Assembly: GCA_029858285.1 (NCBI GenBank)
Contig: JAOUFN010000002.1
Coordinates: 77,896-141,895, forward strand
Reading direction: 5' to 3'
Source of the DNA: Nitrospirota bacterium
Lineage (GTDB): Bacteria; Nitrospirota; JACRHL01
Length of the DNA: 64,000 nucleotides
Of this stretch, positions 7,154-51,521 are shown piece by piece (position 1 is the first letter of the stretch; each line of letters begins with the position of its first letter). Both the position numbers and the translations under genes were made by a program. The notes under the pieces were generated by a model. That model had not been told where the DNA came from, made no database searches, and saw nothing but the letters and a program-made list of their open reading frames with translations.

Positions 7154-7522
7154 ATGGGGGGCAAACTCCTTGGGCGTCAGACACGGGTGATCTCCCCGGC
7201 AGGTCGGCCGTCTCGCGCAGAGACCCGAACCTTTGCGCCCCACCCTCGCGGATGGTTTGCCCCAAAACGGGTGAGTCGACGTTTCAACACACTCAAACCC
7301 ACTATGTCAGCAAGGGGTGTGCCACCCGAACATAATTGATTTTCGCCTTTAAATTACAATCAGTTGTGTGATTAATAAAAAACCATCCCGGCACCCCATG
7401 ATGGAAAACGGGCAGCGACTGGGTAATTATTTTCCGTTTGTCACCCCCGCTCGCCCCACCCGTTCGCCCGACATCCGGCCCGACATCCAGCTCCCTTCCG
7501 GAAAAAGCGCTAGAATGGCGGT

Positions 7523-10021
7523 ATGGACTCCGTCAGCGCCCCCACTGCCACGCGCCGCGTGGAGATGCCCGTTACCGGCATGAGTTGCGCCGCCTGCGCC
7601 GCCCGCATCGAAAAGGTGCTGGGGCGGCGCGAGGGGGTGGTCAGCGCCCAGGTGAATTTTGGCACCACCAGCGCCATCGTGGAATACGACCCCGCCCGCC
7701 TCACCCCCGCCGATCTGGTGGCCACGGTGCAGCAGACCGGCTACGGGGTGGCGGAAGCCGACGCCGACTTTCCCATCGCGGGCATGAGTTGCGCCGCCTG
7801 CGCGGCGCGCATCGAAAAGGTGCTGGGACGGGTGGACGGCGTGCTGGAAGCCCAGGTGAACTTCGGGTCCGGCAGCGCCCATGTGCGGCACCTGCCGGGG
7901 GTGGGCATGGCCGACCTGCGCGCCGCAGTGGCCCGCGCCGGGTACACCGTGCCCGAGGAGCGGGACCCGCTGGCCGCCCCGGACGCCCCGGATCCGGCAG
8001 AGCGGGAGGCCGCCCGCGAGCGCCAGGCTCTCACCCGCAGGCTGCTGATTTCGTCCTTGTTGACCCTGCCCCTGCTGGTGCTGGGCATGCCCGGCCTGTT
8101 TCCGTTTGCGGCGCACGTTCCCGGCCACCTGCTGCTGATGCTGGTGCTGGCGACGCCGGTGCAGTTCTGGGCCGGCTGGCCGTTCCTGCGCGGGGCGTGG
8201 GCGGCAGCGCGCCACGGCGCCAGTGACATGAACACCCTGGTGGCCATCGGCACCGGCGCGGCCTATCTTTACTCCGCCGTGGCGGTGCTGTTCCCCTCCC
8301 TGCTGGAAGGCGCCCGCGGCGGGGCGGAGGGGCATGTTTATTTTGAAACCGCCGCCGTCATCATCACCCTGATCCTGCTCGGCCGCACCCTGGAAGCCCG
8401 CGCCAAAGGCCACACCTCCGACGCCATTCGCCGCCTGATGGGGCTGGCGCCCCGCACCGCCCGCGTCATCCGGGGTGGTACCGAGCAGGAAATTCCCCTC
8501 GACCAGGTGCTCACCGGCGACGTGGTGGCGGTGCGGCCGGGGCAAAAGATTCCGGTGGACGGCACCGTCGCCGAAGGCCACTCCACGGTGGACGAGAGCA
8601 TGCTCACCGGCGAGCCGATCCCGGTAGAAAAACTCCCCGGCGCGGCGGTCATCGGCGGCACCCTCAACAAAACCGGGGCGTTTCGCTTTACCGCCACCCG
8701 CGTGGGGCGCGACACCGCCCTGGCCCACATCATCGAGATGGTGCGCCGGGCGCAGGGCTCCAAGGCCCCCATTCAGCGCCTGGCGGACAAGGTGGCGGGC
8801 ATTTTCGTGCCGGTGGTGCTGGGCATCGCCGCCGCCGCCTTTCTGATCTGGTATCTGGTCGGCCCCGAGCCGCGTTTCGTCAACGCCATGATGGTGTGCG
8901 TGACGGTGCTGATCATCGCCTGCCCCTGCTCCCTGGGGCTGGCCACCCCCACCGCCATCATGGTGGGCACCGGCCGGGGCGCCGAATTCGGCGTGCTGAT
9001 CAAGGGCGGCGAGAGCCTGGAGCACGCCCACCGCGTGACCACTGTGGTGTTCGACAAGACCGGCACCCTCACCCACGGCCGCCCCGAGGTCACCGACCTG
9101 CATGTGGTGGAGGGCAGCGAGGCGGAATTGCTGGCGCTGGCCGCCGGGGTGGAGCAGGCCTCCGAGCACCCCCTGGCCCAGGCGGTGCTGGCCGCCGCCG
9201 ACGCCCGTGGCGTGACTCCCGCCGAGGTACAGCGCTTCGAGGCGCTGGCCGGACGCGGCGTCAGCGCCAGCGTGAACGGCCACCAAGTGCTGCTCGGCAA
9301 CCCGCGCCTGCTGACGGAACGGCAGATTGCCATCGACCCCGTGGCCGGGCATCTGGAGCGCATCACCGGCGAGGGCAAAACCCCGGTGCTGGTGGTGCGG
9401 GACGGCCGTCTTCTGGGGCTGCTGGCGGTGGCCGACCGGGAAAAACCCGAGGCCGTGGCCGCCATCGCCGCCCTGCACCGCATGGGGCTGGCGGTGGCCA
9501 TGATCAGCGGCGACAACCGCCGCACCGCCGAGGCCGTGGCGGGCCGCCTTGGCATCGACCGGGTGCTGGCCGAGGTGCTGCCCCGGGACAAGGCCAACGA
9601 GGTGCAGCGCCTGCAACAGGCGGGGGAGGTGGTGGCCATGGTGGGCGACGGCATCAACGACGCCCCGGCCCTGGCCCAGGCCGACCTGGGCATTGCCCTG
9701 GGCACCGGCACCGACGTGGCCATGGAGGCCGCCGACATCACCCTGATGCGCGGCAACGTGATGGGCGTGGTCACCGCCATCGAGCTGTCCCGCCGCACCC
9801 TGCGCACCATCCGCCAGAACCTGTTCTGGGCCTTCGGCTACAACACGGCGGGCATCCCCCTGGCGGCGGGCATTTTGTACCCCTTCACCGGCACCCTGCT
9901 GTCGCCCATGATCGCCGCCCTGGCGATGGCGTTCTCGTCCGTTTCGGTGGTCACCAATTCCCTGCGCCTGAAGGGTTTTGTGCCTGCCAGCCAGACACCT
10001 GACACCGCCGATTCACGTTGA
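7523..10021 (+). CDS. copA: Copper-translocating P1B-type ATPase with two N-terminal heavy-metal-associated (HMA) domains
   Basis: Two [18 protein letters not shown] motifs, the CPC transmembrane metal site ([12 protein letters not shown]), DKTGTLT phosphorylation motif, and GDGINDAP hinge. Confidence 0.95.
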
Positions 10022-18582: not shown

Positions 18583-19551
18583 ATGGAATTTTCCGAGGGG
18601 GCATCCAACCACCCGCTTTCGCCGCCCGCCGCCGAGGTGGTCCTGATTGGCGAAGTGCTGTTCGACCGGTTTCCCGACGGTGACCGCTTGGGGGGCGCGC
18701 CGTTCAACGTCGCCTGGCACCTGGCGGGCCTCGGTGCCACGACCCTGTTCATCAGCCGCATCGGCAAGGACCCTCCCGGCGAACGCATTCTCGCCGCCAT
18801 GCGCTCCCGGCACATGGATACCCGCGGGATTCAGACCGATCCCGCCCATCCCACCGGCAGTGTGCGCATCACCCTCGACCGGCACGGCGGCCACGATTTC
18901 ACCATCCTCCCCGACCAGGCCTACGACCACATCGACGGCGCCACCACCGGCGCCCTGCTCGCCTCCCATCCCTCCCGCCTGTTCGGCTTTGGCACCCTTG
19001 CCCTGCGCTCCCCCGCCAGCCGCGCCGCCATCTTGAATGCCGCCCGCGCCTGTAACGGCCCGCGCTTTCTCGACGTGAACCTGCGCCGCGACTGCTGGAA
19101 CCGCGACAGCGTGACCGCCGCACTGGAACACGCTTCGGTGGTGAAGCTCAACGATGGCGAACTGGAGGTGCTGGGCGCCGAACTGGACCTGCCAGGCTCT
19201 GCCACAGCCTGGGGACCGGCCCTGCGGGAACGCTTCGGCCTTGATGCCGTGTGCGTCACTGCGGCGGAACACGGCGCCTGGTGGCACGATGCGGCGGGCG
19301 GCCTGCACGTCCCCGCCGCCCCGGTCACCGTGGTAGACACGGTGGGCGCCGGGGACGCCTTCTCGGCGGTGCTGATCCTCGGACTGCTGCGCCGCTGGCC
19401 GCCCCGCGTCACCATTGAGCGCGCCGCCACCCTGGCGGCGGCCATGTGCGGTCAGCGCGGCGCCTGCCCCGATTCGGCAGATTTCTATCTGCCGTTTCTG
19501 GCGCGCTGGAGCGAAGACGGTCCGCAAACCCCAGGGGGCACTCCGGGATGA
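18583..19551 (+). CDS. Fructokinase (pfkB-family carbohydrate kinase)
   Basis: VLIGEVLFDRFPDG...GGAPFNVAWHLAGLG N-terminal motif and the DTVGAGDAFSA pfkB signature. The stop overlaps the SPS start (ATGA). Confidence 0.85.
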   Translation: MEFSEGASNHPLSPPAAEVVLIGEVLFDRFPDGDRLGGAPFNVAWHLAGLGATTLFISRIGKDPPGERILAAMRSRHMDTRGIQTDPAHPTGSVRITLDRHGGHDFTILPDQAYDHIDGATTGALLASHPSRLFGFGTLALRSPASRAAILNAARACNGPRFLDVNLRRDCWNRDSVTAALEHASVVKLNDGELEVLGAELDLPGSATAWGPALRERFGLDAVCVTAAEHGAWWHDAAGGLHVPAAPVTVVDTVGAGDAFSAVLILGLLRRWPPRVTIERAATLAAAMCGQRGACPDSADFYLPFLARWSEDGPQTPGGTPG

Positions 19552-21767
19552 GTCAGGGGCTGCACATCGCCATGCTCTCGGTGCACGGCCTGATCCGCGC
19601 CGAACACCCGGAACTGGGGTGTGACGCCGACACCGGTGGCCAGATCACCTATGTGCTGGATCTGGCCCGCCACCTCGCCCGCCACCCCAGGGTGACGCGG
19701 GTGGACCTGTTCACCCGTCAGGTTTTCGACCCCGCAGTGTCTCCCGATTACGCCCGCCCCGTCGAACCGCTGGGGGAGGACGGCGCCCGCATCGTGCGCA
19801 TTCCATGCGGACCGCGCAAATACCTGCGCAAGGAGAGCCTGTGGCCCTACCTCGACGAGTTCGTGGACCGCACCGTGAATTTCCTGCGGCGCGAGGGACA
19901 CCCCCCCCACCTGTTTCACAGCCATTACGCCGATGCCGGATATGTGGGGCACGAACTGTCGCGCTTTCTGGGCATCCCCCTGTTCCACACCGGCCACTCT
20001 CTGGGGCGCACCAAGCGTGACCGCCTGCTGGCGTCGGGCGAGGCCGCCGACACCATCGAGCTGCGTTACCGCCTGCGCCAGCGCATCCGGGTGGAGGAGC
20101 GGGTGTTCCAGCACGCCGCGTGCGTCATCTGCTCTACCCGTCAGGAGGCGGACACCCAGTGGGGCATGTACCAGAACGCCTACGATACCGAATTGCTGGT
20201 GCTGCCCCCCGGCACCGACGCCAGCCTGTTTTCGCCCCCTGCTCGCCACTGGCATCCGCCCCCCATCCGCTACGAGGTGGACCAGTTCCTGCGCCACCCG
20301 CGCCGCCCCATGATCCTCGCCCTGGCGCGCGCCGACCCGCGCAAGAACCTGCGGCGGCTGATGCAGGCTTATGCCCGTTCGCCGCGCTTGCAGGACATGG
20401 CCAACCTGGTAATCGTGGCCGGCAACCGCGACGACGCCCGCGACTTGCCCGGCTCCTCCCGCGACGAGATGACCCAGTTGCTGCTCGACGTGGACAAATT
20501 CGAACTGTACGGCAAGGTGGCCCTGCCCAAACACCACGACGTAACGGAAGTGCCGGAACTCTACCGTCTGGCGGTACGGCGGCGCGGCGTGTTCGTGAAT
20601 GCGGCGCTCACGGAACCGTTCGGCCTGACCCTGATCGAGGCCGCCGCCTCCGGCCTGCCGGTGGTGGCCACCCACGACGGCGGCCCGCGCGACATCATTC
20701 ACAACTGCCGCAACGGCCTTCTGGTAGACCCTCTGGACGTCGGCGCCATCGCCCGCGCCATCGAGGAGGTGCTGTCGGATCGTGCCCGCTGGCGGCGTTT
20801 TTCAGAGGCCGGGCGCGCCGGGGTGCGGCGCCACTACACCTGGACCGCACATGTGAACCGCTATGTGCGGCAGGTGGAATCTGCCATCCAGCGCCTGCGC
20901 CCCAAGGGCGTGCCCCGGCGCAAAACCGACGCACAACGGAGGCGCATGCTGACCTTTGACCGATTGCTGGTCTGCGACATCGACAACACCCTGGTGGGCG
21001 ACCCCGTCGCCCTGGAAAAACTGCTCGCGCTGTTGCGCCGGGAGCACCAGCACCTGGGCTTCGGAGTGGCCACCGGGCGCTCCCTGGAACTGACCCTGGA
21101 GGTACTGGAGCAGCACCGCATCCATCGCCCCGACATGCTCATCACCAGTGTCGGCACCGAGATCCACGAAGGGCCCTACCACGATCCGGCGGACGGCTGG
21201 ACCCAGCACATCAGCCACCGCTGGAACCGGGACGCCGTGGTGGCCGAACTGGCCGACGTGGAGGGGCTGGAGTTGCAGGGCGAGGACGGACAACGCCCGT
21301 TCAAGGTCAGCTACTTTGTGGACGGCCTGCGGGCTGCCCGCGACGATGACGCCGATGCGGTGCAGGACGGCGGACGGCGCATTGAGCGGGAGGTGGCCGA
21401 ACGCCTGCGCAAGGCCCGTGTCCGCTTTACCACCGTGTTTTCCCACGGTCAGTTCCTCGACATCCTGCCGCTGCGGGCCAGCAAGGGCAAGGCCATCCGC
21501 TACCTGGCCGACAAGTGGGGAATCCCCTACGACCGCATCCTGGTGGCGGGGGACTCCGGCAACGACGAAGAGATGCTGCGTGGCGACACCCTGGGGGTGG
21601 TGGTGGGCAACTACAGCGCCGAGCTGGAACCCCTGCGGCGCTACTCGCGCGTCCATTTCGCCACCGGACATTACGCCGCTGGTATCCTCGAAGGGATCGC
21701 CCATTACCGCTTTCTGGAACCCCGCCAGGCACCGGCAAATATCCAGCAATCACAGGAGCACTCATGA
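19548..21767 (+). CDS. sps: Sucrose-phosphate synthase (GT4) with C-terminal sucrose-phosphatase-like HAD domain
   Basis: MLSVHGLIR...[20 protein letters not shown]-terminus; GT4 core; C-terminal [15 protein letters not shown] motif I. The start was set at the ATG at 19548 (MSQGLHIAM), coupled to the fructokinase stop. Confidence 0.9.
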
Positions 21768-24169
21768 TCTCCCGCGTCGAAGCCAGTTTTACCCAGCAGC
21801 GCGAAGCCCTCTACCCCCTGTTTCGGCAACTGACCCTGGTGGGCCGTCCGTTCCTGCTGCGCAGCGACATCCTGGACCGGGTGCGGCAGTTCCGCGCCAC
21901 CGATCCCGCAGTGGACGCCTGCCTGTCCGAAGGCCCCATGGAGCAGTGGTTCCGCCAGGTTCAGGAAGCGGTGGTGGGCAACGGCTGGATATGCCTGGGA
22001 GTACGTACCGACATCGCCCGCTGGCGCTACGTGCGGGTGGACCTGGAAGAGATGCACGTCGAATCGGTCACCCCCCAGGCCTACCTTGAGATGAAGGAGC
22101 AGGCGGTGCTCGGCACCCTGCCGTTCGACGCCCACCCGCTGGAGGTGGACACCGGCCCGTTCTCCCACGGCTTTCCAAAAATGACCAAGACCGCCAGCAT
22201 TGGACGCGGCGTGGAGTTCCTCAACCGCCACCTGGCCAGCCAGATGTTCCGTGACCGCGCGGCGGCAAGCGCGCAGATGCTGAATTTTCTCAAGCTGCAC
22301 CACGTGGACGGCCGTTCTCTGATGCTCAACGAGCGCATCGCCGATGCGGCAGCCCTCGCGGACCGGCTGCGGGAGGCGGTGGACCTCGCCCGTTCCAACC
22401 CCCCGGCCACCCCGTGGACGGAACTGGCCGCCCCCCTGCAGGAGATGGGCTTCGAACCCGGCTGGGGCGGCACCGCCGCTCGCGTGCGGGAGACCATGGA
22501 ACTGCTCTCCGACGTGCTGGAGGCACCGGAGCCCGCCGGGCTGGAGCGCTTCCTGTCACGCATCCCGATGATTTTCCGGATCGCCATCATCTCGCCCCAC
22601 GGCTGGTTCGGCCAGAAGGGGGTGCTGGGGCGGCCGGACACCGGCGGCCAGGTGGTATACATTCTGGATCAGGTGCGTGCCCTGGAGGCGCACATGTGCC
22701 GTTGGTTCGCGGATCAGGGGGTGGACGTCACGCCGCGCATCCTGATCGTCACCCGCCTCATCCCGGAGGCGGAAGAAACCACCTGCAACCAGCGCCTGGA
22801 GGCGGTGCACGGCTGCCGCCACGCGGCCATCCTGCGGGTGCCGTTCCGGGAACGCGGCGGCAACGTGGTGCCACACTGGATCAGCCGCTTCTCGGTGTGG
22901 CCCTACCTGGAGCGCTTTGCCCTGGAAACCGAACGGGAACTGCTGGCGGAGATGGGCCACCGCCCGGATCTGGTGATCGGCAACTACTCCGACGGCAACC
23001 TGGTGGCCTCCATCCTTGCCCACCGGTTGGGCGTCACCCAGTGCAACGTGGCCCACGCCCTGGAAAAATCCAAATACGTACTGTCCGACCTGTACTGGCG
23101 CGACAACGAGGAGCCGTACCATTTCTCCACCCAGTTCACCGCCGACCTCATCGCCATGAACACGGCGGATTTCATCATCACCAGCACTTATCAGGAGATC
23201 GCCGGCACCACCGACACCGCCGGACAGTACGAAAGCTACACCCAGTTCACCCTGCCCGGCCTGTACCGGGTGGTGAATGGCATCGACCTGTTCGATCCCA
23301 AGTTCAACATCGTCTCCCCCGGAGCGGCGGCCGATATCTATTTTCCGTGGTTCGAAGGCGAGCGCCGCCTGCCCGGCCTGCAACCGGAACTGGAAACCCT
23401 GCTGTTCGGCAATCCCCCCGACGGGGTGCCGTTCCGGGGCCATTTGGCCCACCCGGAGCGGCCGGTGATCCTGAGCATGGCGCGCCTCGACCGCATCAAA
23501 AACCTGACCGGACTGGTGGACGCCTTTGGCTCCAGCCCACGTCTGCGGGAACAGGCCAATCTGGTGATCATCGGCGGCCGCGACGTCAATCCCGATGCCA
23601 TGAACGACACCGAGGAGGCCGACGAGGCGCGGCGCATGCACGAGTTGATGAGCCAGCACGGACTGGATGACCAGGTGCGCTGGCTGGCGGTGCATCTGGG
23701 CAAGCCCCAGGCGGGAGAGTTGTACCGGATGATCGCCGACCGCCGGGGGGTGTTTGTGCAGCCGGCGCGCTTCGAGGCCTTCGGGCTCACGGTGATCGAG
23801 GCCATGGTGTCCGGGCTGCCCACTTTCGCCACCTGTTATGGCGGCCCGCTGGAGATCATCGAGGACGGCCACAGCGGCTTCCACATCGACCCCATCCACC
23901 CCCGACAGATGGCCGAGCGCGTCGCGGATTTTCTGGAACGCGCCGCCAGTCTGCCGGAGATTTGGCAGGCCGTGTCACGTCAGGGGGTGGAGCGCGTACA
24001 TCAGCGCTACACGTGGGATCTTTATGCCGAGCGCCTGATGACCCTTTCCAAGGTGTACGGGTTCTGGCGCTTCGTCTCCGATCTGGAGCGGCGCGAGACG
24101 GTGCGCTATCTGGAGATGTTCTATCACCTCCAGTACCGCCCCCTGGCAGAGCGCATCGGCGAGAGCTGA
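21764..24169 (+). CDS. sus: Sucrose synthase
   Basis: About 800 aa with the [15 protein letters not shown] motif and GT4 C-terminal half. The start ATG at 21764 (MISRVEAS) overlaps the SPS stop (ATGA), with a CAGGAG ribosome-binding site. Confidence 0.92.
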
Positions 24170-28251: not shown

Positions 28252-29604
28252 ATGGCGGAACATCGTTCCACGGTCCGCGGCGGTACGACCATGCGACAAA
28301 TGGTCGGCTTCCGGCTGGGAACCGAAAAATTCGCCATCGATATCGGCAAGATCCACGAAATCATCAAGCCGCGTCCGGTCACCATGCTGCCCGACATACC
28401 CGAGGGGTATTCCGGGATGATCCAGTTGCGTGACCGCGTGGTGGTGATGGCCGATCTGCACCTGCGTTTCGGTCTTCCCCCCCACCAGGGAGGCAAGGAC
28501 GCGCGCATCATCGTGCTGGAGCGCCCCGGGCAACCGGTGGGGATTCTGGTGGATGCGGTGTCCGAAGTGGTGCGCTTTTCCCCCCAGATGATCGAATCGC
28601 CACCCGATTTCAGCAACGGCGCCCGGGTGGCCTGCATCGACGGAGTGGGCAAGCTGGGTGGCGAACTGCTCACCATCCTCAATCTGGACGTGCTGTTCAC
28701 CCAGTCCGACATCGTCCTCGCCGATCTGGGCCGGAAAAAGGCCGCCAAGGCGGCGGCAACACCGGCCAAGGCCGACCGGCCCGATGCCAACGCCACTGCG
28801 GAGCAGCCGGAAAAACACCCCGCGGAGACCGAGCCTGCCGGGCCGGAGTCCGCATCCATGACCGAACCCGAAACCGAGACCGCCGCAATGCCGGAGTCTC
28901 CATCATCCGATCCCGACTGGGCACCGCTGGCGGCCACCCCGCTGCCGCCGTCCGCGCCGGGGGAACCCACGGACGAAGCAATCACGAGCGAACCGGGAGC
29001 CGACATCATGAACGACGACCTTTATCAGGACCTGGGACATCTGGCCCGGTACATCAACAGGGCCCACCAGTCCTTCAACGCCTCCCTTCAGGATGACGAG
29101 CCGATTCGCGTCAAGGCCAAAGACCTGCCTACCGCCACCGACATCCTGCAACAGGTAACGCTGGATACCGAAAACGCCACCATGCGCATCATGTCCGGGG
29201 TGGAAGAGGCCAGTGGCTCCCTGAACAAACTGCGCGGCATCATCGACGAACTCGACGCGGCCATCCCCGCCTCCAGCGAGGAGCGCGCCAAGGCCGGCGA
29301 CATCATCGAGCGCATGCGCGACGAGATCACCGGCGTGGAATCCCTCCAGGACCAGACCCTGATCACCCTCTCCTTCCAGGACCTCACCGGCCAGAAGATC
29401 AAGCAGGTGATGGCGCTGATGATGGAGATCGAGGAGCGCATCCTCGGCATGGTGGTGAAATTCGGTGTTGGCCGCGCCGACGAGGCCGCGCAGGAAGTCG
29501 CCACGCAGGACGTGGCGGAGCGCATCGACGACGTGCGCGCCAAGCCGAACCCCGGCCTGCGCCAGGACCGCGTGGACAGCCTGCTGGCGGATTTCGGGTT
29601 CTAA
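28252..29604 (+). CDS. cheZ: CheW-domain / CheZ phosphatase fusion protein
   Basis: Residues ~1-150 form a CheW-like domain (FRLGTEKFAIDIGKIHEII...GILVDAVSEV). A Pro/Glu/Ala/Thr-rich linker follows. Residues ~240-450 form a full CheZ domain (SFQDLTGQKIKQVMALMMEIEERIL and the C-terminal CheY-binding tail DSLLADFGF). All of this sits in one uninterrupted frame. Confidence 0.8.
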   Translation: MAEHRSTVRGGTTMRQMVGFRLGTEKFAIDIGKIHEIIKPRPVTMLPDIPEGYSGMIQLRDRVVVMADLHLRFGLPPHQGGKDARIIVLERPGQPVGILVDAVSEVVRFSPQMIESPPDFSNGARVACIDGVGKLGGELLTILNLDVLFTQSDIVLADLGRKKAAKAAATPAKADRPDANATAEQPEKHPAETEPAGPESASMTEPETETAAMPESPSSDPDWAPLAATPLPPSAPGEPTDEAITSEPGADIMNDDLYQDLGHLARYINRAHQSFNASLQDDEPIRVKAKDLPTATDILQQVTLDTENATMRIMSGVEEASGSLNKLRGIIDELDAAIPASSEERAKAGDIIERMRDEITGVESLQDQTLITLSFQDLTGQKIKQVMALMMEIEERILGMVVKFGVGRADEAAQEVATQDVAERIDDVRAKPNPGLRQDRVDSLLADFGF

Positions 29605-43025: not shown

Positions 43026-44399
43026 CTAGATTTCGTAGAGATCGCCGGTGGCGGTAGTGACAAGTTCTTCCACGCGCGGATCATGGCTGGCGAAGGGATC
43101 GGTGCAGAGGATGGTTTCCTCAAAATAGCCCGACAGCTTCAGATAGGTCCAGTCCACGCTGTAGGGGCGGCCCGCCTCCTTGGCAAAGCGGATGAACTGG
43201 CCGCGAATGCGCGCCCGGGTGTTGCTGGGGGGGTATTGCATGGCGTGGTCCACCTCCGGATCGGTGGACAGGCGCACCATGCGGCGGTCGCGCTCCAGCA
43301 GATAGAACAACCCGCGGGTGCGGTCGATGTCGTGGTATTGCAGATCGATCATCGACACCCGTGGATCTTCCAGTGTGCAGTTCTGGCGCTCCATGAAGCG
43401 CTGCATGAGCTGATATTTAGCCACCCAGTCGAGGCGATCTGCCAGTTGGGTAAAATCCTTTTCCAGCCATTTCAACACTTCGCGCCACTGCCCCAGAAGG
43501 GCGGAAAAAACGCCGTGGGTAAGGCCGGAAAAATGATGCTCGGCGGCCTCCAGGTAGGCCCACTGCATTTCCAGCGCCGACATGCGGCGGCCATTGGTGA
43601 GCTTCAGGGGCGAGCGCAGGGTCAGATCGAGAGAAATCTGGCGCAGGGCGTCCACCGCATCCTCCAGGGACAGGTCGGGCAGCACCGCCCCCTCCTCCAG
43701 GGCGGTGAGCAGCAGGCAGGTGATGCCCACCTTCAGGTGGGTGGTGAACTCGCTCATGTTGGAGTCGCCCACGATAATGTGCAGACGGCGGTAGCGTTCG
43801 GCGTCGGCGTGGGGCTCGTCACGGGTATTGATGATGCTGCGGCTGCTGGTGGTGGACGAGGATGACGCCTCGTGGATGTGTGTGGCGCGCTGGCTGATGG
43901 AATAGCGTGCGTGGCCCGCCTGGCGAAACACCTTGCCTGCACCGCAGAAGATCTGGCGGGTGACAAAGAACGGAATCATGCGCTCCGCCAGTTGCCAAAA
44001 ATCCACCTGCCGCTCCACCAGATAATTTTCGTGGCAGCCGTAGGTGTTGCCCATGGTGTCGGTATTGTTCTTGTAGGCGTACAGGCGGCCCCTGAATCCC
44101 TCCTCGGCGAGCTTGGCCTGGGCGGGCCCCAGACGTGACTCCAGTAGACGCTCGCCGGCGCGGTCGTGGATCACCGCGCTGCGCACCGAAGCGCACTCCG
44201 GGGTGGCATATTCCGGGTGACAGCCGGTGTCCTGATAAAAGCGCGCGCCGTTGGGGAGAAAGGCGTTGGAGGGCCAGCCGGTGGGGATGACTTCCTCGAA
44301 CAGGTAGCCGATGACCTTTTCCATCGGCAGATAGGCCTTGCCGGTGGGGAAAAAGGTCAGCCCGTACTCGGTTTCGATGCCGACGATGCGGCGGCGCAC
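43026..44399 (-). CDS. pafA: Pup--protein ligase PafA
   Basis: MRRRIVGIETEYGLTF...YLFEEVI...SNAFLPNGARFYQDTGCHPEYATPEC closely parallels the PafA N-terminus; 457 aa with no Dop-loop insertion. Confidence 0.9.
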   Translation of the reverse strand: MRRRIVGIETEYGLTFFPTGKAYLPMEKVIGYLFEEVIPTGWPSNAFLPNGARFYQDTGCHPEYATPECASVRSAVIHDRAGERLLESRLGPAQAKLAEEGFRGRLYAYKNNTDTMGNTYGCHENYLVERQVDFWQLAERMIPFFVTRQIFCGAGKVFRQAGHARYSISQRATHIHEASSSSTTSSRSIINTRDEPHADAERYRRLHIIVGDSNMSEFTTHLKVGITCLLLTALEEGAVLPDLSLEDAVDALRQISLDLTLRSPLKLTNGRRMSALEMQWAYLEAAEHHFSGLTHGVFSALLGQWREVLKWLEKDFTQLADRLDWVAKYQLMQRFMERQNCTLEDPRVSMIDLQYHDIDRTRGLFYLLERDRRMVRLSTDPEVDHAMQYPPSNTRARIRGQFIRFAKEAGRPYSVDWTYLKLSGYFEETILCTDPFASHDPRVEELVTTATGDLYEI

Positions 44400-44405
44400 G
44401 GCGGG

Positions 44406-45104
44406 TCAGGCTGGCAGCAAGGCTGCCACCTCGGTGGTGGACAGGCGGCGGAAGGTGCGTCCGCGCAAGGCCCGGTCCAGCAGGGCGACCTCGAAATCGG
44501 CGGCGGACAGGCGACCGTTTGCCCCGGCCCCGGCTCCGGAACTACCCAGCACCTCGCGGCACAACGACAGGGAGGCCCGCACGTCGGCCACGCGGGAAAA
44601 ATCCCGGTCCAGGGCCACGCGCACACGGTCGGCGTCACCGCCCACCACGGCGTAATCGCCCTCGCCGATAATGTTGCCGTCGAAGGAGACGCGGTAGATG
44701 GTGTCGTTTTCCGGGCTTGCTCCCACTTCGGCGACCACCAGTTCCACCTCCATCGGCTTGACCTCGTGGGCGAACACCTCGCCCAGCATGTGGGAATAGC
44801 CGTTGGCCAGGGATTTGGCGGTGACGTCTTCACGGCTGTAGGAGTAGCCGGTGACATCGGCGTGGCGGATGCCGGCCTTGCGCAGGGATTCAAACTCGCT
44901 GAAGCGACCGGCCCCGGCAAAGCCGATGCGATCGTAAATTTCGGAGATCTTGTTGAGGGCGGAACCGGGGTTGTGGGCCACGAACAGCACCCCATCGGTA
45001 GTACGCATGACCACGGTGGCACGGCCCCGGCTGATGCCCTTTTTGGCGAACTCCGCCTTGTCCTGCATCAATTGTTCGGGGGAAACGTAATACGGCATGG
45101 CCAT
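44406..45104 (-). CDS. prcA: Proteasome alpha subunit PrcA
   Basis: MAMPYYVSPEQLMQDKAEFAKKGISRG matches the actinobacterial-type PrcA N-terminus. Confidence 0.9.
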   Translation of the reverse strand: MAMPYYVSPEQLMQDKAEFAKKGISRGRATVVMRTTDGVLFVAHNPGSALNKISEIYDRIGFAGAGRFSEFESLRKAGIRHADVTGYSYSREDVTAKSLANGYSHMLGEVFAHEVKPMEVELVVAEVGASPENDTIYRVSFDGNIIGEGDYAVVGGDADRVRVALDRDFSRVADVRASLSLCREVLGSSGAGAGANGRLSAADFEVALLDRALRGRTFRRLSTTEVAALLPA

Positions 45105-45107
45105 GGC

Positions 45108-45929
45108 TTATTTCCCCTTCTTTCTCGAACCGCCCCCGGCATCGGGACCGGCGCCTGGACGGGGAAGTCCCCCGCAAACCTGCCGGATGTGATCCGCGTC
45201 CACCTCACGCGCGCCGTCGGCATCGATGACCAGGGCAGAGGGAAAAATGCCGCGCTGAGGGTCGGGGCCGGCGGTGGCCAGGTCCTCGTCGGCGGCATCC
45301 AGCAGAGAGGCCAGCGCCAGCCCGAGGGCCCCGGCCTCGTCCATGCCGGGGCGGAAGGCGCGTTTGATGGCGCTGCGGGCCAGGCCGCCACCGGAACCGG
45401 CGGTCACATAGTCCGGCTCCTCGGTCTTGCCCCCCGCCACGTCGTACTTGAACACCCGCCCCGCTCCGCGCTCGGGGTCGAAGCCGGCGAACACCGGAAT
45501 CACCGCCAGCCCCTGCATAGCCAAAGCCAGGTTGCCGCGCACCATTTGCGCCAGCTTGTTGGCCTTGCCGGACAGGGACAGGGCCCGCCCCTCGATCTTT
45601 TCGTAGTATTCCAGCTCGGTGGCAAACAGCCGCGCCATGTCGAGGCACGGCCCCACCGCGCCAGAGATGGCCATCGCGGAGTGGCGGTCGGTGCGAATCA
45701 CCTTGTCCATGTGGCGGCTGGAGACGCTGTGGCCGTCGGAGGCCATGCGGTCCCCGGCGATCACCACCCCTCCGGCGTAGACCAGGGCCACTACGGTAGT
45801 GCCGTGAGGCACCGCCACCGGTCCCTCCATGGCGCCGCGAATGGCGGTGGGCAGCAGGTCCGGCCGCACACTGACCAGATAATCGTAAAAACTCGCCCCG
45901 GCTTGGGGCGAAAAGGCATCCCCTCTCAC
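45108..45929 (-). CDS. prcB: Proteasome beta subunit PrcB (with propeptide)
   Basis: Propeptide followed by the ...PHG/TTVVALVYAGGVVIAGDR catalytic Thr1 context; Ntn-hydrolase fold. Confidence 0.9.
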   Translation of the reverse strand: MRGDAFSPQAGASFYDYLVSVRPDLLPTAIRGAMEGPVAVPHGTTVVALVYAGGVVIAGDRMASDGHSVSSRHMDKVIRTDRHSAMAISGAVGPCLDMARLFATELEYYEKIEGRALSLSGKANKLAQMVRGNLALAMQGLAVIPVFAGFDPERGAGRVFKYDVAGGKTEEPDYVTAGSGGGLARSAIKRAFRPGMDEAGALGLALASLLDAADEDLATAGPDPQRGIFPSALVIDADGAREVDADHIRQVCGGLPRPGAGPDAGGGSRKKGK

Positions 45930-45948
45930 GTTGTACTCCCGTCCGTGG

Positions 45949-46146
45949 TTACTGTCCGCCCTTCTGGACGTAATTTTTGACGAATTCCTCGGCGTTCTTC
46001 TCCAGCACGTCGTCGATCTCGTCCATCAGCTTATCCATGTCCTGGGCAAGCTCCTTGCCCTTTTCGGTAATGGCTGGCGCCTTGGTCTCCTCCTCGGAGG
46101 GCGCCTTCTCGGCGGGTTTTTCGCGGGTTTCCTTTTTCTGGGCCAT
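45949..46146 (-). CDS. pup: Prokaryotic ubiquitin-like protein Pup (64 aa, C-terminal GGQ)
   Basis: MAQKKETREKP...DMDKLMDEIDDVLEKNAEEFVKNYVQKGGQ: conserved Pup C-terminal helix and GGQ terminus. The start was set at the internal ATG at 46146. Confidence 0.9.
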   Translation of the reverse strand: MAQKKETREKPAEKAPSEEETKAPAITEKGKELAQDMDKLMDEIDDVLEKNAEEFVKNYVQKGGQ

Positions 46147-46218
46147 GAATGTTCCGTCTGCCTCCGTGCGGTCGGGTACGGGGCGCAACCCTCGCCCTGC
46201 CCGTGGCCTGCCTGATAC

Positions 46219-47709
46219 CTATCCGGCGTTTCCTTCGAGACGCGCAACCAGCTCCGCAGGGGTGGCGGAGGCGTCCAGGAGTTCACCGATGACATCCCGT
46301 GTGCCCCGGAACGGATCCAGCATGGGGATGCGACGCACCTCCTCGCCGGTGTCCAGCAGCACTGAACTCCAACTTACACCGTAAACTCCTTTTCCGAAAC
46401 GGGCAAGACATTGCCCGCGGAACCAGGCGCGGGTATCGACGGGTGGCTGCTCCTGCGCGGCGGCGATCTCTGCAGGGGTCACTAGGATATCCACCATGCC
46501 GCGTTTCTCCAGAGTGTGGTACAGCCCCTTGGCCAGGTCCACATCGTGGTACTGCAGGTCCATGGCGCGGGCGCGCGGATGGCTCCAGTCCAGCCCCTTG
46601 TGGGTCAGGTAGGTGTCGATCATGCGGTATTTGATGACCCAGTCCACCTCCCGGTCCGGCGACATGGGATCGGCCTCAAGGTCGTTCAGCACCTTCTCCC
46701 AGCGTTCCACCACCAGGGGAAAGCTGCCCGGCAGGGGGTGACGCGCGGCGTAGGCCTTGACGCGCTCCAGATAGACACGCTGGATGTCGATGGCGCTCAT
46801 GGAGCCGCCCCCCTCAATGTCCACCACCCGTCCCAAGGCCAGATCGCGGGACACGGCACGGAACGCCTCCACCGGATCGGCGGGCCACGGCACGTCGCCC
46901 AGGGCGTCGTCCTCGATCAGGCGCAGGATCAGGGCCGTGGTACCCACCTTGAGGAAGGTGGAAACCTGGCTCATGTTGGAATCGCCGGGGATCACATGCA
47001 GGCGCAGCCAGCGCTCCGGATCGGCGTGGGGTTCGTTGCGGGTGTTGAACAGGGGGCGGCGGACCATGGTGTTGAGTTCCGCCAGTGCCTCAAAAAAATC
47101 GGCCCGCTGGGACATCTGGTAGCGGCACGCCTCGCGCCCGTGCTCGGAGCCCACCTTGCCCGCGCCGCAGAACACGGTGCGGGTGACAAAATGCGGTACC
47201 AGACCACGAATCAGGCGCTCCGCAGGAATGCCTCGAACCACCAGATAATTCTCATGGTAGCCATAGCTGTTGCCCTTGCCGTCGGAGTTGTTCTTGTGCA
47301 GGGCAAAGCGCGGCCTGCCGGTGGCGCGCTCGGCGCCCTTGCGGCAGGCGTCGGCGATGCGCTCGCCGGCGGTCTCGAAACGCACCAGATCGAGAGGGTC
47401 GCTGACCTCGGGGGTGGAATATTCGGGGTGGGCGCCGTCCACATACAGACGGCCCCCGTTGGCCAGGGGCTTGTTGAGGGCGCGGTTGGCGTACAGGTCG
47501 GGATCTTCGCGCTCCCCCTCCATGAGGCTGCCGAACAGGTCCAGAAGGGGGTTTTCCCCGGCGTAATCCCACAGACACTCGGGGGCCGGACGGCCGGGGC
47601 AGAATCCCACCAGTTGCAGGGAATTGGTGATGTGATTCTGTTCCCGGGGGTCGGCGCAGGAGATGCCGAACTCGGTCTCGCTGCCGAGGAGAAAGGGGCG
47701 GTCTGTCAT
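46219..47709 (-). CDS. dop: Depupylase/deamidase Dop
   Basis: MTDRPFLLGSETEFGIS... aligns with the Dop N-terminus. About 497 aa with an extra insertion (Dop loop) relative to the PafA paralogue in this locus. Confidence 0.88.
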   Translation of the reverse strand: MTDRPFLLGSETEFGISCADPREQNHITNSLQLVGFCPGRPAPECLWDYAGENPLLDLFGSLMEGEREDPDLYANRALNKPLANGGRLYVDGAHPEYSTPEVSDPLDLVRFETAGERIADACRKGAERATGRPRFALHKNNSDGKGNSYGYHENYLVVRGIPAERLIRGLVPHFVTRTVFCGAGKVGSEHGREACRYQMSQRADFFEALAELNTMVRRPLFNTRNEPHADPERWLRLHVIPGDSNMSQVSTFLKVGTTALILRLIEDDALGDVPWPADPVEAFRAVSRDLALGRVVDIEGGGSMSAIDIQRVYLERVKAYAARHPLPGSFPLVVERWEKVLNDLEADPMSPDREVDWVIKYRMIDTYLTHKGLDWSHPRARAMDLQYHDVDLAKGLYHTLEKRGMVDILVTPAEIAAAQEQPPVDTRAWFRGQCLARFGKGVYGVSWSSVLLDTGEEVRRIPMLDPFRGTRDVIGELLDASATPAELVARLEGNAG

Positions 47710-47764
47710 GGCGTTTCCGATGCGGCGGAGGGCGGCGTGAACCACCCCCCGCCGCTGGCTTCGG

Positions 47765-49519
47765 TTACAGGTAGTGACCGGCGGAGACCGGCTTGATCTC
47801 CTTGGCCTGATGCCCGTCGTGGGTGATGGTGCGGATGTTCACGATCCGCTCCCCCTTGCGACCGGCGATCTTGGCCCAGTCGTCCGGATTAGTGTTATTG
47901 GGCAGGTCCTCGTTTTCCTGGTACTCCTTGCGCATGCCGCGCAGCAGGTCGTCCAGGCGGATGCCGCGCCCGCCACCGTCGATGGCACGCTTGATCGCAT
48001 ATTTCTTGGCCCGCGAAACGATGCCCTCGATCATGGCACCGCTGGAGAAGTCCTTGAAGTAGCAGATCTCGCGCTCCCCATTGGCGTAGGTGACCTCGAG
48101 GAACTGGTTGCTCTCCCCGGTGGCGTACATCTCGTCCACCACCGCGTCGATCATGCGGCCAAAGGAGGTTTCCGGCACCTCGCCGGCCGCCACTGCCTCC
48201 GCGTGCAGGGGCAGGTCCGGGGTGAGGTACTTGCGAAAGATCTCCCGCGCCCCCGCCGCGTCCGGCCGGTCGACGCGAATCTTCACGTCCAGACGACCGG
48301 GGCGCAGCACCGCAGGATCAATCAGATCCTGGCGGTTGGTGGCGCCAATGACGATCACGTTGCGCAGCCGCTCCACGCCGTCGATCTCCGCCAGGAACTG
48401 GGGCACGATGGTCGATTCCACGTCCGAGCTGACGCCGGTGCCGCGGGTACGGAACAGGGAGTCCATCTCGTCGAAGAAAATGATCACCGGTACCCCCCGG
48501 TCGGCCTTTTCCTTGGCCTTCTGGAAGATTTCGCGGATGCGGCGCTCGCTTTCGCCCACGTACTTGTTGAGCAACTCCGGCCCCTTGATGTGCAGGAAGA
48601 AGCTGCGCCGCTCCTTGTCGCCCCGGTCGCTGACCCGGGCCGAAATGGCCTGGGCCACGGCCTTGGCGATCAAGGTCTTGCCGCAGCCTGGAGGGCCGTA
48701 GAGCAGGATGCCCTTGGGCGGGCTGAGACGGTGCTCCTGATACAGTTCGGGGTGCAGGAACGGCAGTTCCACGGCGTCGCGGATCTCCTCGATCTGGGCC
48801 CCCAGCCCGCCGATGCGGCTGTAGTCCACGTCGGGGATCTCTTCGATCACCAGTTCCTCGGCCTCGCACTTGGGAAGCTTTTCCAGCAGGTAGCCGGAAC
48901 GGGTGTCCAGCAGCACGTTGTCGCCGACCCGCAGCACCTCTTTGCGCAACCGGTCGGTGAGGCGCGCCACGCGTTCCTCGTCGCCGTGCAGGTTGACGAT
49001 GGCGCGGCCCTCGTCCAGCACCTCCTTGATGGTGACCACCTCGCCCTGCACCTGGAAGCCCTTGGCCTCCACCACGTTGTAGGCCTCGTTGAGCACCAGT
49101 TCCTGGCCCACCTGCAAGGTGTGGATGTCGATGTCAGGATGGGCATGAACCTTCATCTTGCGCCCCGCGACATACACGTTGACCGTGCCGTCGTCGTTGA
49201 CCGAGGAAAAGAATCCGTACGGATTGGGCGGCAGCGTGAGCTTTTCCACCTCTTCCTTGAGGGCTTCGATATGCGCCCGGGATTCCTGAAGGATCTGCAC
49301 CAGCTTCTGATTCTGCTGGTACGCCTGATCCAGTTGGTTGCGCATGGGAAACAGGTGCAGCAGTTCCGTCTCCATGGACTGCATCTGCACGCGCAGGCGC
49401 TGGATCTCCTGTTCGTAATCGGTTTTGGTGAATGTTCCCTTGCGCCCGGGGCCGGCACCCTGGGGTCCCTCGCCCCCGGCAGTGCCCCCGGAAGTATTGT
49501 GCGAACGGGAAGTGGCCAT
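47765..49519 (-). CDS. arc: Proteasome-associated AAA+ ATPase ARC/Mpa
   Basis: N-terminal coiled coil and tandem OB region; AAA+ Walker [21 protein letters not shown]; 584 aa; C-terminal ...GHYL (HbYX-like docking motif). GAGGAGGAGG ribosome-binding site. Confidence 0.93.
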
Positions 49520-49600
49520 GTCGCCTCCTCCTCAGGATTCGGTCGTTGTGGGCGTCCGGCACGGGGCGATCCCGTACCCGGGGCATACCCTCCAAGACCA

Positions 49601-49629
49601 AGCATAAGGGGGTTACGGGATTCGGTCAA
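49601..49629 (-). promoter_or_regulatory. Putative sigma-70 promoter for arc-dop-pup-prcBA-pafA (TTGACC-17 nt-TATGCT on the minus strand)
   Basis: On the minus strand, TTGACC (49624-49629), a 17-nt spacer and TATGCT (49601-49606), preceded by an AT-rich UP-like stretch. Same hexamers as the tRNA promoter. Confidence 0.4.
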
Positions 49630-49659
49630 ACTTATGAAATTACAGAATTTTGACGCCAA

Positions 49660-50307
49660 CTATCGGTTTTTTGGCGGTTCTCCGGCGGCCAGCAAATCCG
49701 CAGCCGCACGGCCTGGGTCGGCATTTGCCATGATTGCCGAAATAACGGCCACGCCGTGGGCCCCGGCAGCCATAATGGAATCTGAATGGGCATTTTTGAT
49801 GCCACCCAGGGCAAATACCGGCAGGGCCGCCCCGCGCGCCGCCAGGGCCAGGCCTTCGAGACCCTGTGGAGTACCCATACCGCGCTTGGAAGGGGTATCA
49901 AATACCGGGCCGAAGGTCACCAGACTGGCCCCTTCGGTGGCGGCTCGCAAAATATCCTGCGGATGATGGGTGGAGACCCCGATCAGCGTTTCGGCGCCGA
50001 GCAGGGCGCGCACCTCGCGCACCGGCGGGTCCGAACTGGTCAGGTGTACCCCGGCCCCCACGGCGCGGGCCACGTCGGCGCGGTCGTTCACCAGCAGGCG
50101 CGCCCCGTGGCGCAGGCACAGGGCCTGAACCTCCCGCGCCAGGACCAGCAGGGCACGGGCGCTCAGGTCTTTTTCGCGCAGTTGCACCAGCCGCACCCCG
50201 GCTTTCAGGGCCGCCTCCAGACAGGCCAGAAGGTCACCGCCGGGCACCTGATGGCGGTCGGTAATCAGGTACAGGCGCGGCAGCAGGGCGGGGGCCTTAA
50301 GTGTCAC
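49660..50307 (-). CDS. thiE: Thiamine-phosphate synthase
   Basis: LYLITDRH...LVQLREKDLSARA...ThiE TIM-barrel signature; 215 aa. Confidence 0.9.
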   Translation of the reverse strand: MTLKAPALLPRLYLITDRHQVPGGDLLACLEAALKAGVRLVQLREKDLSARALLVLAREVQALCLRHGARLLVNDRADVARAVGAGVHLTSSDPPVREVRALLGAETLIGVSTHHPQDILRAATEGASLVTFGPVFDTPSKRGMGTPQGLEGLALAARGAALPVFALGGIKNAHSDSIMAAGAHGVAVISAIMANADPGRAAADLLAAGEPPKNR

Positions 50308-50341: not shown

Positions 50342-51166
50342 TCAATCGGCTGTTGCCGCCGCTGCGGCCGCCGCGATGTGGCCGTGCAGGGGCGAACTGG
50401 CCGTGGCGTGGAGTTTTTTCGGGATGCGCCCGGCCAAAAAGGCCTCGCGCCCGGCAATCACCGCGTGGCGCATGGCACGGGCCATGCGGATCGGCTCCCG
50501 TGCCCCGGCAATGGCCGTGTTCAGCAGCACCGCGTCCACTCCCAGTTCCATGGCCACCGCCACGTCCGAGGCGGTGCCGACCCCAGCGTCCACGATCACC
50601 GGGCAACTCACGCTCTCGCGGATGATCTGGATGGTGTACGGGTTGCACACCCCCAGACCGGAGCCGATGGGAGCGGCCAACGGCATCACCGCCGCGCACC
50701 CGGCGTCCTCGAAACGTTTGGCCATGATCGGGTCGTCGGTCATGTAGGGCAGCACGATAAAGCCCTCGCGCACCAGCACCTTGGCCGCTTCCAGGGTCGC
50801 CTGGTTGTCGGGAAACAGGGTGCGCTCGTCGGCGATCACCTCCAGCTTCACCAGGTCGCCGACGCCAGCCGCACGCGCCAGCCGCGCGGTGCGGATGGCC
50901 TCCTCGGCGGTATAGCAGCCCGCCGTGTTGGGCAGGATCTTGTAGATTTTCGGGTCCAGGTAATCCAGCAGGTTCGGCTGGCCGGGATCGGTGATATTCA
51001 CCCGCCGCACCGCCACCGTCACCACGTCGGCACCGGATTCCTCGATGGCGCGGCGTGTCTCGTCAAAATCCTTGTATTTGCCAGTGCCCACCCACAGCCG
51101 GGACCTGAAGGTGATGCCACCGAGGGTGAATGAATCCTGCGGGGCCTTTTGATCCTGCTGTGCCAT
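50342..51166 (-). CDS. thiG: Thiazole synthase
   Basis: [41 protein letters not shown] and the lysine Schiff-base region; 274 aa. Confidence 0.93.
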
Positions 51167-51211: not shown

Positions 51212-51421
51212 TCAGCGTCCGCCGCCGACAAAGTGGATGATCTCGATGCGGTCGCCGTCGGTCAGCACCGTGTCGCCAAAGCGCTCGCGCTCGACGATGT
51301 CGAGGTTGCGCTCCACGGCCACGCGCGGTCCGCTGATGCCCAGTTCGGCGATCAGCCCCTGCACCGTGGTGCCGTCGGGGGTTTCCCGTGGACTGCCGTT
51401 GACGATGATGTTCACCCGCAC
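51212..51421 (-). CDS. thiS: Sulfur-carrier protein ThiS (ends ...VGGGR, one residue past the Gly-Gly)
   Basis: 69-aa beta-grasp protein MRVNIIVNG...DGDRIEIIHFVGGGR directly upstream of thiG. The C-terminus carries an Arg after the GG(G). Confidence 0.8.
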   Translation of the reverse strand: MRVNIIVNGSPRETPDGTTVQGLIAELGISGPRVAVERNLDIVERERFGDTVLTDGDRIEIIHFVGGGR

Positions 51422-51521
51422 ACCTGTCTTTCAGAGGGTTTCAGCGTAAAACGTGGGCAGGTCCATGGTCAATGTTGAATTCCCGACCGGCTCCCCGACC
51501 GGTTTTGCCCACCACGGCACG

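Follow-up and report, generated by a model that had tools for sequence, protein, structure and literature searches.

A canonical Pup-proteasome operon of Nitrospirota, very probably inherited vertically within the phylum

The system for tagging proteins with prokaryotic ubiquitin-like protein (Pup) and degrading them by a 20S proteasome is as routine in Nitrospirota as in Actinobacteria (PMC7947786, PMC3511204), and its gene order has been called rigidly conserved (PMC3511204). Nitrospirae appear in Iyer et al. 2008 (PMC2588565) as a lineage that has Pup and proteasome genes linked to it, and Barandun et al. 2012 (PMC3511204) showed that the locus of Leptospirillum ferrooxidans keeps this rigid order. 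By the accepted history, the ancestor of the Nitrospirae received the system from Actinobacteria in an ancient transfer (PMC7947786, PMC3511204). According to Hecht et al. 2020 (PMC7947786), Dop and PafA are conserved in both groups, the transfer to the Nitrospirae ancestor being a single ancient event, and transfer from Acidimicrobiales was proposed by De Mot 2007, as relayed by Barandun et al. 2012 (PMC3511204); for the question of the donor, PMC7947786 and PMC3511204 are relied on here. Publications from 2007–2008 onward already cover its occurrence in Nitrospirae, its gene order and its ancient origin. Here, a Pup-proteasome locus is described from a stretch of 64,000 nucleotides (the window) of contig JAOUFN010000002.1 in the assembly GCA_029858285.1, labelled Nitrospirota bacterium. 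All coordinates below are positions in the window.

Six co-directional genes on the minus strand, arc/mpa, dop, pup, prcB, prcA and pafA, are tightly packed and span 43026–49519 in the open reading frame (ORF) listing of 40–52 kb. The intergenic gaps from arc to pafA are 3–72 bp, and only 3–19 bp for the genes from pup to pafA. NCBIfam and Pfam profile searches place all six proteins in the expected families, and these matches and the ORF coordinates agree with the gene identities and order proposed in an earlier interpretation of this DNA from its letters (the sequence-only reading). The gene order is the one expected of a Pup-proteasome system, and the order arc-dop-(pup)-prcB-prcA-pafA is universal among the related Nitrospirota loci. 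The latter were found in a PafA scan of one genome each for 185,579 species, which gave 587 confirmed relatives, and the comparisons below use the best 80. Directly after prcA comes pafA, which is not followed by pafB and pafC; a convergent cytochrome c gene lies downstream. Every component is intact with its signature motifs, and the activities discussed below are those predicted by homology. The locus is best interpreted, with a probability of about 0.9, as a canonical Nitrospirota Pup-proteasome operon that is vertically inherited within the phylum. The system found here is one already known, and its proteins are already annotated in GenBank.

Essentially all of the best 80 of the 587 PafA relatives are labelled Nitrospirota. 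The two off-label titles among them are "uncultured bacterium" (L003) and "uncultured Nitrosospira sp." (L041), and the latter groups with Nitrospira loci. The PafA from the window is 85% identical to that of its best relative, a Nitrospirota metagenome-assembled genome (MAG), 72–78% identical to those of a small clade with a "Leptospirillia bacterium" MAG (76%) among its members, and ~58–60% identical to those of Nitrospira, Manganitrophaceae and Troglogloeales. Exact GenBank matches, labelled "[Nitrospirota bacterium]" and derived from a MAG, were obtained for ARC (MDH4228430.1), Pup (MDH4228428.1) and PrcA (MDH4228426.1), where the names proteasome ATPase, ubiquitin-like protein Pup and proteasome subunit alpha had already been given. 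An exact-sequence look-up of PafA returned no match, probably owing to its GTG start. The host is an uncultured lineage whose closest MAGs carry the label Nitrospirota or Leptospirillia.

The segment from ~29.7 kb (cheA) to 55.3 kb (trpE) is collinear with L002, L003, L005 and L006 at 40–87% amino-acid identity, which gives ~25 kb of collinearity with Nitrospirota/Leptospirillia MAGs. With flanks collinear with Nitrospirota MAGs, the backbone as well as the operon is Nitrospirota. The genes confirmed around it include lon, those for LptE, a flhG-like ATPase and a fliA-like sigma factor, cheW/Z/A/B/R and a gene for a methyl-accepting chemotaxis protein. They indicate a motile diderm bacterium, as Leptospirillum-like Nitrospirota are, and not a proteobacterium. 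Hence, the sequence-only reading was right that lptE and flagellar and che genes flank the locus, but the proteobacterial backbone that it took from them is contradicted by the Nitrospirota labels and the collinearity. The comparison of GC content at third codon positions (GC3) and codon usage that it had put forward as a check for an acquired locus gives no sign of recent acquisition: GC3 of the locus is 0.818 versus 0.827±0.034 in 40 other window genes, and its codon-usage correlation is r=0.981 versus 0.986±0.007 for random gene sets. The locus matches its flanks, and there is no compositional island.

The arc/mpa gene (47765–49519, minus strand) encodes a proteasomal AAA+ ATPase of 584 aa with matches to TIGR03689, PF17758, PF16450 and PF00004, and the score of 737 bits against TIGR03689 is well above the cut-off of 505. 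The protein has an N-terminal coiled coil, two OB domains in tandem, an AAA domain and a tail ending in ...SAGHYL, which is the G-x-Y-L type of end characteristic of Mpa/ARC and has a putative docking role. Over residues 59–566 it can be aligned with M. tuberculosis Mpa (7PX9; Mpa residues 59–588) at 641 bits, including the Walker motifs and the pore loop. The GHYL end had been read correctly before, though it is not a peculiarity of this locus as had been suggested; the tail is GHYL in 58/68 and GHYF in 10/68 related Nitrospirota loci, so that one or the other occurs in 68/68 and represents the norm of the phylum.

Genes for both 20S subunits are present. The beta subunit gene prcB (45108–45929, minus strand) encodes 273 aa and gives 275 bits with TIGR03690; the mature beta chains of Rhodococcus and M. 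tuberculosis align from Thr44 of PrcB (PHG/TTVV), after Gly43, which defines a propeptide of 43 residues. The alpha subunit gene prcA (44406–45104, minus strand) encodes 232 aa and gives 282 bits with TIGR03691 (cut-off 139). The profiles and the PDB beta chains together identify a 20S alpha/beta pair with a propeptide before Thr1. A terminator-like GC hairpin with a T-run was seen at 45892–45912 (minus strand), ~40 nt past the pup stop and inside the first prcB codons. Such a site could lower prcBA expression compared with pup, but hits of this hairpin and T-run type number 8 versus 7.7 expected by chance.

The two ligase-fold enzymes, Dop and PafA, both contain the GhExE motif and the catalytic Asp. 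The dop gene, for the Pup deamidase/depupylase, is placed at 46219–47709 (minus strand) and encodes 496 aa when read from its more likely start, the ATG at 47709. Starting at the first in-frame GTG (47745) would lengthen the product to 508 aa (46219–47745); dop is called at 496 aa in the public assembly of the same sequence. Dop scores 488.0 bits with its own model, TIGR03688 (cut-off 492.3), versus 357.4 with the PafA model. It aligns with Acidothermus Dop (4B0R) end to end, including the loop region, at 429 bits, and with PDB PafA at 243 bits and only from residue 91 onward. Direct alignment reveals an insertion of ~31 residues in Dop relative to PafA, with WDY..ENPL, at the position of the Dop-loop. 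The Pup-protein ligase gene pafA (43026–44399, minus strand) encodes 457 aa. Its product scores 547.4 bits with TIGR03686 (cut-off 551.3) versus 394.4 with the Dop model, aligns with Corynebacterium PafA (4B0T) over residues 2–449 at 367 bits and with Dop at 309 bits, and has no Dop-loop. Its GhExE motif is GIETE, and the Asp lies in FYQDTGCHPEYATPE; FYQDTGCHPEY is present. The gap of 130–150 bits between the paralogue models makes the predicted Dop and PafA assignment unambiguous despite the shortfall from the cut-offs. A reversed assignment is ruled out by the model scores, the PDB scores and the loop insertion, and both the assignment and the Dop-loop insertion of the sequence-only reading are borne out by them.

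The catalytic-Asp motif of Dop is LYVDGAHPEYSTPE, which lies at roughly 47440–47480 in the window, a placement that is not pinned. All Nitrospirota Dops compared (69/69) have YVD-G-AHPEY, with Gly beside the catalytic Asp; in the actinobacterial enzyme this position is a highly conserved His (PMC7947786 Table 1). The corresponding PafA motif, FYQDTGCHPEY, is equally constant and was found in 80/80 Nitrospirota PafAs compared. These signatures near the catalytic Asp could alter the kinetics of both enzymes, but they are phylum-wide and not particular to the window.

The pup gene (45949–46146, minus strand) encodes a prokaryotic ubiquitin-like protein of 65 aa, the length at which it is also called in the public assembly of the same sequence. 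It matches PF05639 (E=6e-21) and TIGR03687 (65.9 bits versus a cut-off of 41.45). The C-terminus is ...NYVQKGGQ, so that the GGQ end had not been misread in the sequence-only reading, and a deamidation step by Dop is therefore predicted to be required. Among the related Nitrospirota loci, Pup ends in GGE in 20 and in GGQ in 7, the GGQ of the window not being counted. GGQ is common to the nearest relatives of the window (L001, L003, L004 and L005), and close relatives may differ, as do L005 (GGQ) and L006 (GGE). Dop is always present, alongside GGQ as well as GGE Pups; its retention with the latter is expected because of its second role as a depupylase.

About 40 Nitrospiraceae/Nitrospira loci retain thiSGE-arc-dop-prcB-prcA-pafA without a detectable pup between dop and prcB (L014, L017, L021, L022, L024, L026, L027, L035, L037–L039, L041, L043, L045, L046, L048–L054, L058–L067, L071–L076 and L078–L080). 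Their dop-prcB junctions lie at roughly locus positions 8300–8450, with a gap of 14–110 bp in all but a few; the gap is nominally larger in L026 and L060, and the estimate for L048 is unreliable. No pup was found within ±10 kb in these Nitrospiraceae loci by tblastn, by a Pup hidden Markov model run on six-frame peptides, or among small ORFs ending in G[QE]. The linked pup has apparently been lost from them, and in such genomes Pup must be encoded elsewhere or have been replaced.

A sigma-70-type promoter precedes arc at 49601–49629 (minus strand). As the sequence-only reading had it, and as a consensus scan and direct reading confirm, it consists of the -35 box TTGACC (49629–49624), a 17-nt spacer and the -10 box TATGCT (49606–49601), ~75 nt upstream of the arc ATG. 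A Shine-Dalgarno-like GAGGAGGAGG at 49524–49533 (minus strand) was read before the ATG, and its AGGAGG is conserved in the alignment of relatives. The number of promoter-like motifs is not above chance (2 in 10 kb versus 1.4 expected). Nevertheless, TTGACC-N17-TATGCT is very probably a real arc promoter, judging from its positional conservation, since TTGACC-N17-TAnnnT occurs in 53/55 Nitrospirota thiE-arc spacers. When the window was aligned with L001, L003, L004 and L006, TTTGACC was invariant and the -10 box nearly invariant, with diverged flanks. The Nitrospiria arc promoters have an extended -10 box, TG[AT]TAGAAT, and the clade of the window has TATGCT.

Upstream of arc on the same strand lie thiS (51212–51421; TIGR01683), thiG (50342–51166; PF05690) and thiE (49660–50307; TIGR00693), all on the minus strand, in agreement with the thiS-thiG-thiE neighbourhood noticed before. 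The pair thiG-thiE is directly upstream of arc in 50/54 related loci with enough sequence, the exceptions being L010, L030, L057 and L069, and the co-directional thiSGE-arc adjacency spans Leptospirillia-like, Nitrospiria, Manganitrophaceae and Troglogloeales loci. Operon, thiSGE neighbour and promoter alike recur from class to class within Nitrospirota, a synteny pattern consistent with one ancient acquisition and vertical descent thereafter. The 100-nt gap that separates thiS from a cytochrome-c-like gene upstream of it contains another TTGACC box at 51443–51472 (minus strand), TTGACC-N18-TACGCT, whose -10 is weak. ThiS, a sulfur carrier, has the ubiquitin fold too.

This arrangement raises the question of whether part of the expression of the Pup-proteasome genes comes from a long thiS-thiG-thiE-arc...pafA transcript in which they are distal, which would couple them to thiazole/thiamine synthesis. 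Besides the shared strand and the adjacency across classes, the arc -35 box lies only 30 nt past the thiE stop, no terminator-like site was found between thiE and arc (49520–49659), and the thiE-arc spacer with the 5' untranslated region folds no better than shuffled sequence (z=-0.5). On the other hand, the dedicated promoter conserved in 53/55 spacers suffices for expression of arc, searches of the regions upstream of thiS and arc gave neither a thiamine pyrophosphate (TPP) riboswitch nor any other Rfam element, whether at gathering thresholds or at E≤1, and conserved adjacency can be plain inherited synteny. Read-through of this kind is a tentative proposal, with the balance of the evidence leaning against it. 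The stronger claim, that the adjacency reflects functional coupling of the ThiS/thiazole pathway with the Pup-proteasome and not frozen synteny, is improbable. If it were true, it might take the form of read-through co-expression, or of a Nitrospirota-specific control of thiamine enzymes by pupylation.

The analysis demonstrates the gene content and motifs, the synteny, the phylum of the host and the conservation of the promoter. The biochemistry set out next is inferred from homology to the pathway of Actinobacteria (PMC3511204). In the canonical operon, the conserved sigma-70-type promoter upstream of arc would drive arc-dop-pup-prcB-prcA-pafA. Pup would be made with a C-terminal Gln, which Dop would deamidate to Glu (GGQ to GGE). 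PafA would then phosphorylate the γ-carboxylate of Pup and ligate Pup to lysines of the substrates. The coiled coils of the ARC/Mpa hexamer would bind Pup, the ATPase would unfold the substrate, and ARC would use its GHYL tail to dock onto the 20S core of PrcA and PrcB, in which the PrcB beta subunits are predicted to self-activate at Thr1. Dop may also strip Pup from substrates.

An alternative is that pupylation serves here mainly as a proteasome-independent regulation, as in Corynebacterium, with the 20S genes dispensable or decaying. Such pupylation is known in proteasome-lacking actinobacteria (PMC3511204, cluster III), and the apparent loss of the linked pup from Nitrospiraceae loci means that the module can be remodelled. 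However, prcB and prcA are intact and score far above the cut-offs, with Thr1 and the propeptide kept. In addition, a proteasome-docking type of G-x-Y-L tail is retained by ARC in all 68 loci, and the genes between pup and pafA are packed with gaps of 3–19 bp. Mainly proteasome-independent pupylation is hence highly improbable for this locus.

Several points weigh against the interpretation of the locus as a canonical, vertically inherited operon. The operon structure is predicted from the spacing of 3–72 bp, and the function proposed for Nitrospirota Pup-proteasome systems rests on homology. Each of Dop and PafA scores 4 bits less than its NCBIfam equivalog cut-off, and the Gly-for-His replacement in Nitrospirota Dop could change kinetics or regulation.

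The sequence-only reading had instead taken the system for a sporadic, horizontally acquired island in a proteobacteria-like chromosome; the diderm and flagellar features of the flanks (LptE, flhG-like, fliA-like, che) and the accepted actinobacterial transfer into the Nitrospirae ancestor (PMC7947786, PMC3511204) are in its favour, but it is refuted for practical purposes by the Nitrospirota labels of the proteins in GenBank, the ~25 kb collinearity of the flanks, including the che genes, with Nitrospirota MAGs, the lack of a compositional island, the lack of any locus labelled proteobacterial among the best 80 of the 587 PafA relatives, and the phylum-wide retention of the thiSGE neighbours, which places any transfer before the radiation of the phylum. 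That reading had also held that its claim would fall if the host were actinobacterial, where the system is routine. The phylum is Nitrospirota and not Actinobacteria, yet the system is equally routine in it, which has an equivalent consequence for the claim.

Elsewhere in the window, a c-di-GMP-I riboswitch (RF01051, 49.9 bits, E=9e-7) was found at 7195–7271 (minus strand), between small ORFs and an opposite-strand gene for a copper/heavy-metal P-type ATPase. A sucrose-phosphate synthase/phosphatase fusion is encoded at 19446–21767 (plus strand), followed by sucrose synthase at 21515–24169 (PF00862, 476 bits). These sucrose genes (19446–24169, plus strand) form a compatible-solute module that adjoins the flagellar and chemotaxis genes. 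Among the latter, a single ORF at 28252–29604 (plus strand) combines a CheW domain (residues 16–151) with a CheZ phosphatase domain (residues 256–450).

The locus is a clean example of the fact that a diderm envelope with flagella does not mean Proteobacteria. It also draws together features of the Nitrospirota version of the system, namely the conserved arc promoter, the GHY[LF] tail of ARC, Asp-Gly-Ala in Dop, the mixture of GGQ and GGE Pups, the linkage to thiSGE and the apparent loss of the linked pup in Nitrospiraceae. These features could guide the study of pupylation in nitrifiers or iron oxidisers.

UBact of Gram-negative bacteria, the subject of Lehmann et al. 2017, is reportedly a Pup analogue too divergent for Pup models and without the ...QKGG[QE] tail. 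A modifier of this type is ruled out by the strong matches to the Pfam Pup family and TIGR03687 and by the QKGGQ end, and the modifier predicted from the window is Pup proper, not UBact. The loci of Plesiocystis (deltaproteobacteria) and Rhodopirellula resemble the window in having a Pup-like gene beside a PafA-family gene in a Gram-negative host (PMC2588565). Those membrane-anchored Pup-ligase loci are without proteasome genes, and their ligases have an insertion of four transmembrane segments (PMC2588565). The locus in the window is not of this type, as its PafA aligns with the soluble PafA of Corynebacterium over residues 2–449 without a large insertion and prcB and prcA are adjacent.

With the system of M. 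tuberculosis and other Actinobacteria, the locus shares all components, the gene order, the predicted deamidation of GGQ by Dop, the Dop-loop, Thr1 and the ATPase architecture, and the C-terminal half of Pup, ...DEIDDVLE.NAE.FV..YVQKGGQ, is common to both. The tail of ARC is GHYL in place of GQYL in actinobacterial Mpa, and the 17-residue insert in the OB region of M. tuberculosis Mpa is absent from ARC of the window, as indicated by an alignment gap. Near the catalytic Asp, Dop has Asp-Gly-Ala versus Asp-His-Ala and PafA has Gln-Asp-Thr-Gly-Cys versus Leu-Asp-Val-Gly-Ser in Actinobacteria (PMC7947786 Table 1). Moreover, pafA stands directly after prcA with no pafB/pafC following, and the host is diderm.

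The locus of Leptospirillum and other Nitrospirae is among the closest described systems. A Leptospirillia MAG, at 76% PafA identity and with collinear flanks, is the nearest relative to bear a name at class level. In L. ferrooxidans there are two divergent copies (PMC3511204), whereas one copy is seen in the window, the rest of the genome not being visible, and tblastn found no second (L2/UBact-like) copy within the window. The window belongs to an uncultured high-GC (~65%) lineage and not to Leptospirillum itself, but it shares with that locus the phylum, the six genes, their order and a bona fide Pup (De Mot 2007 via PMC3511204; PMC2588565; PMC3511204; PMC7947786).

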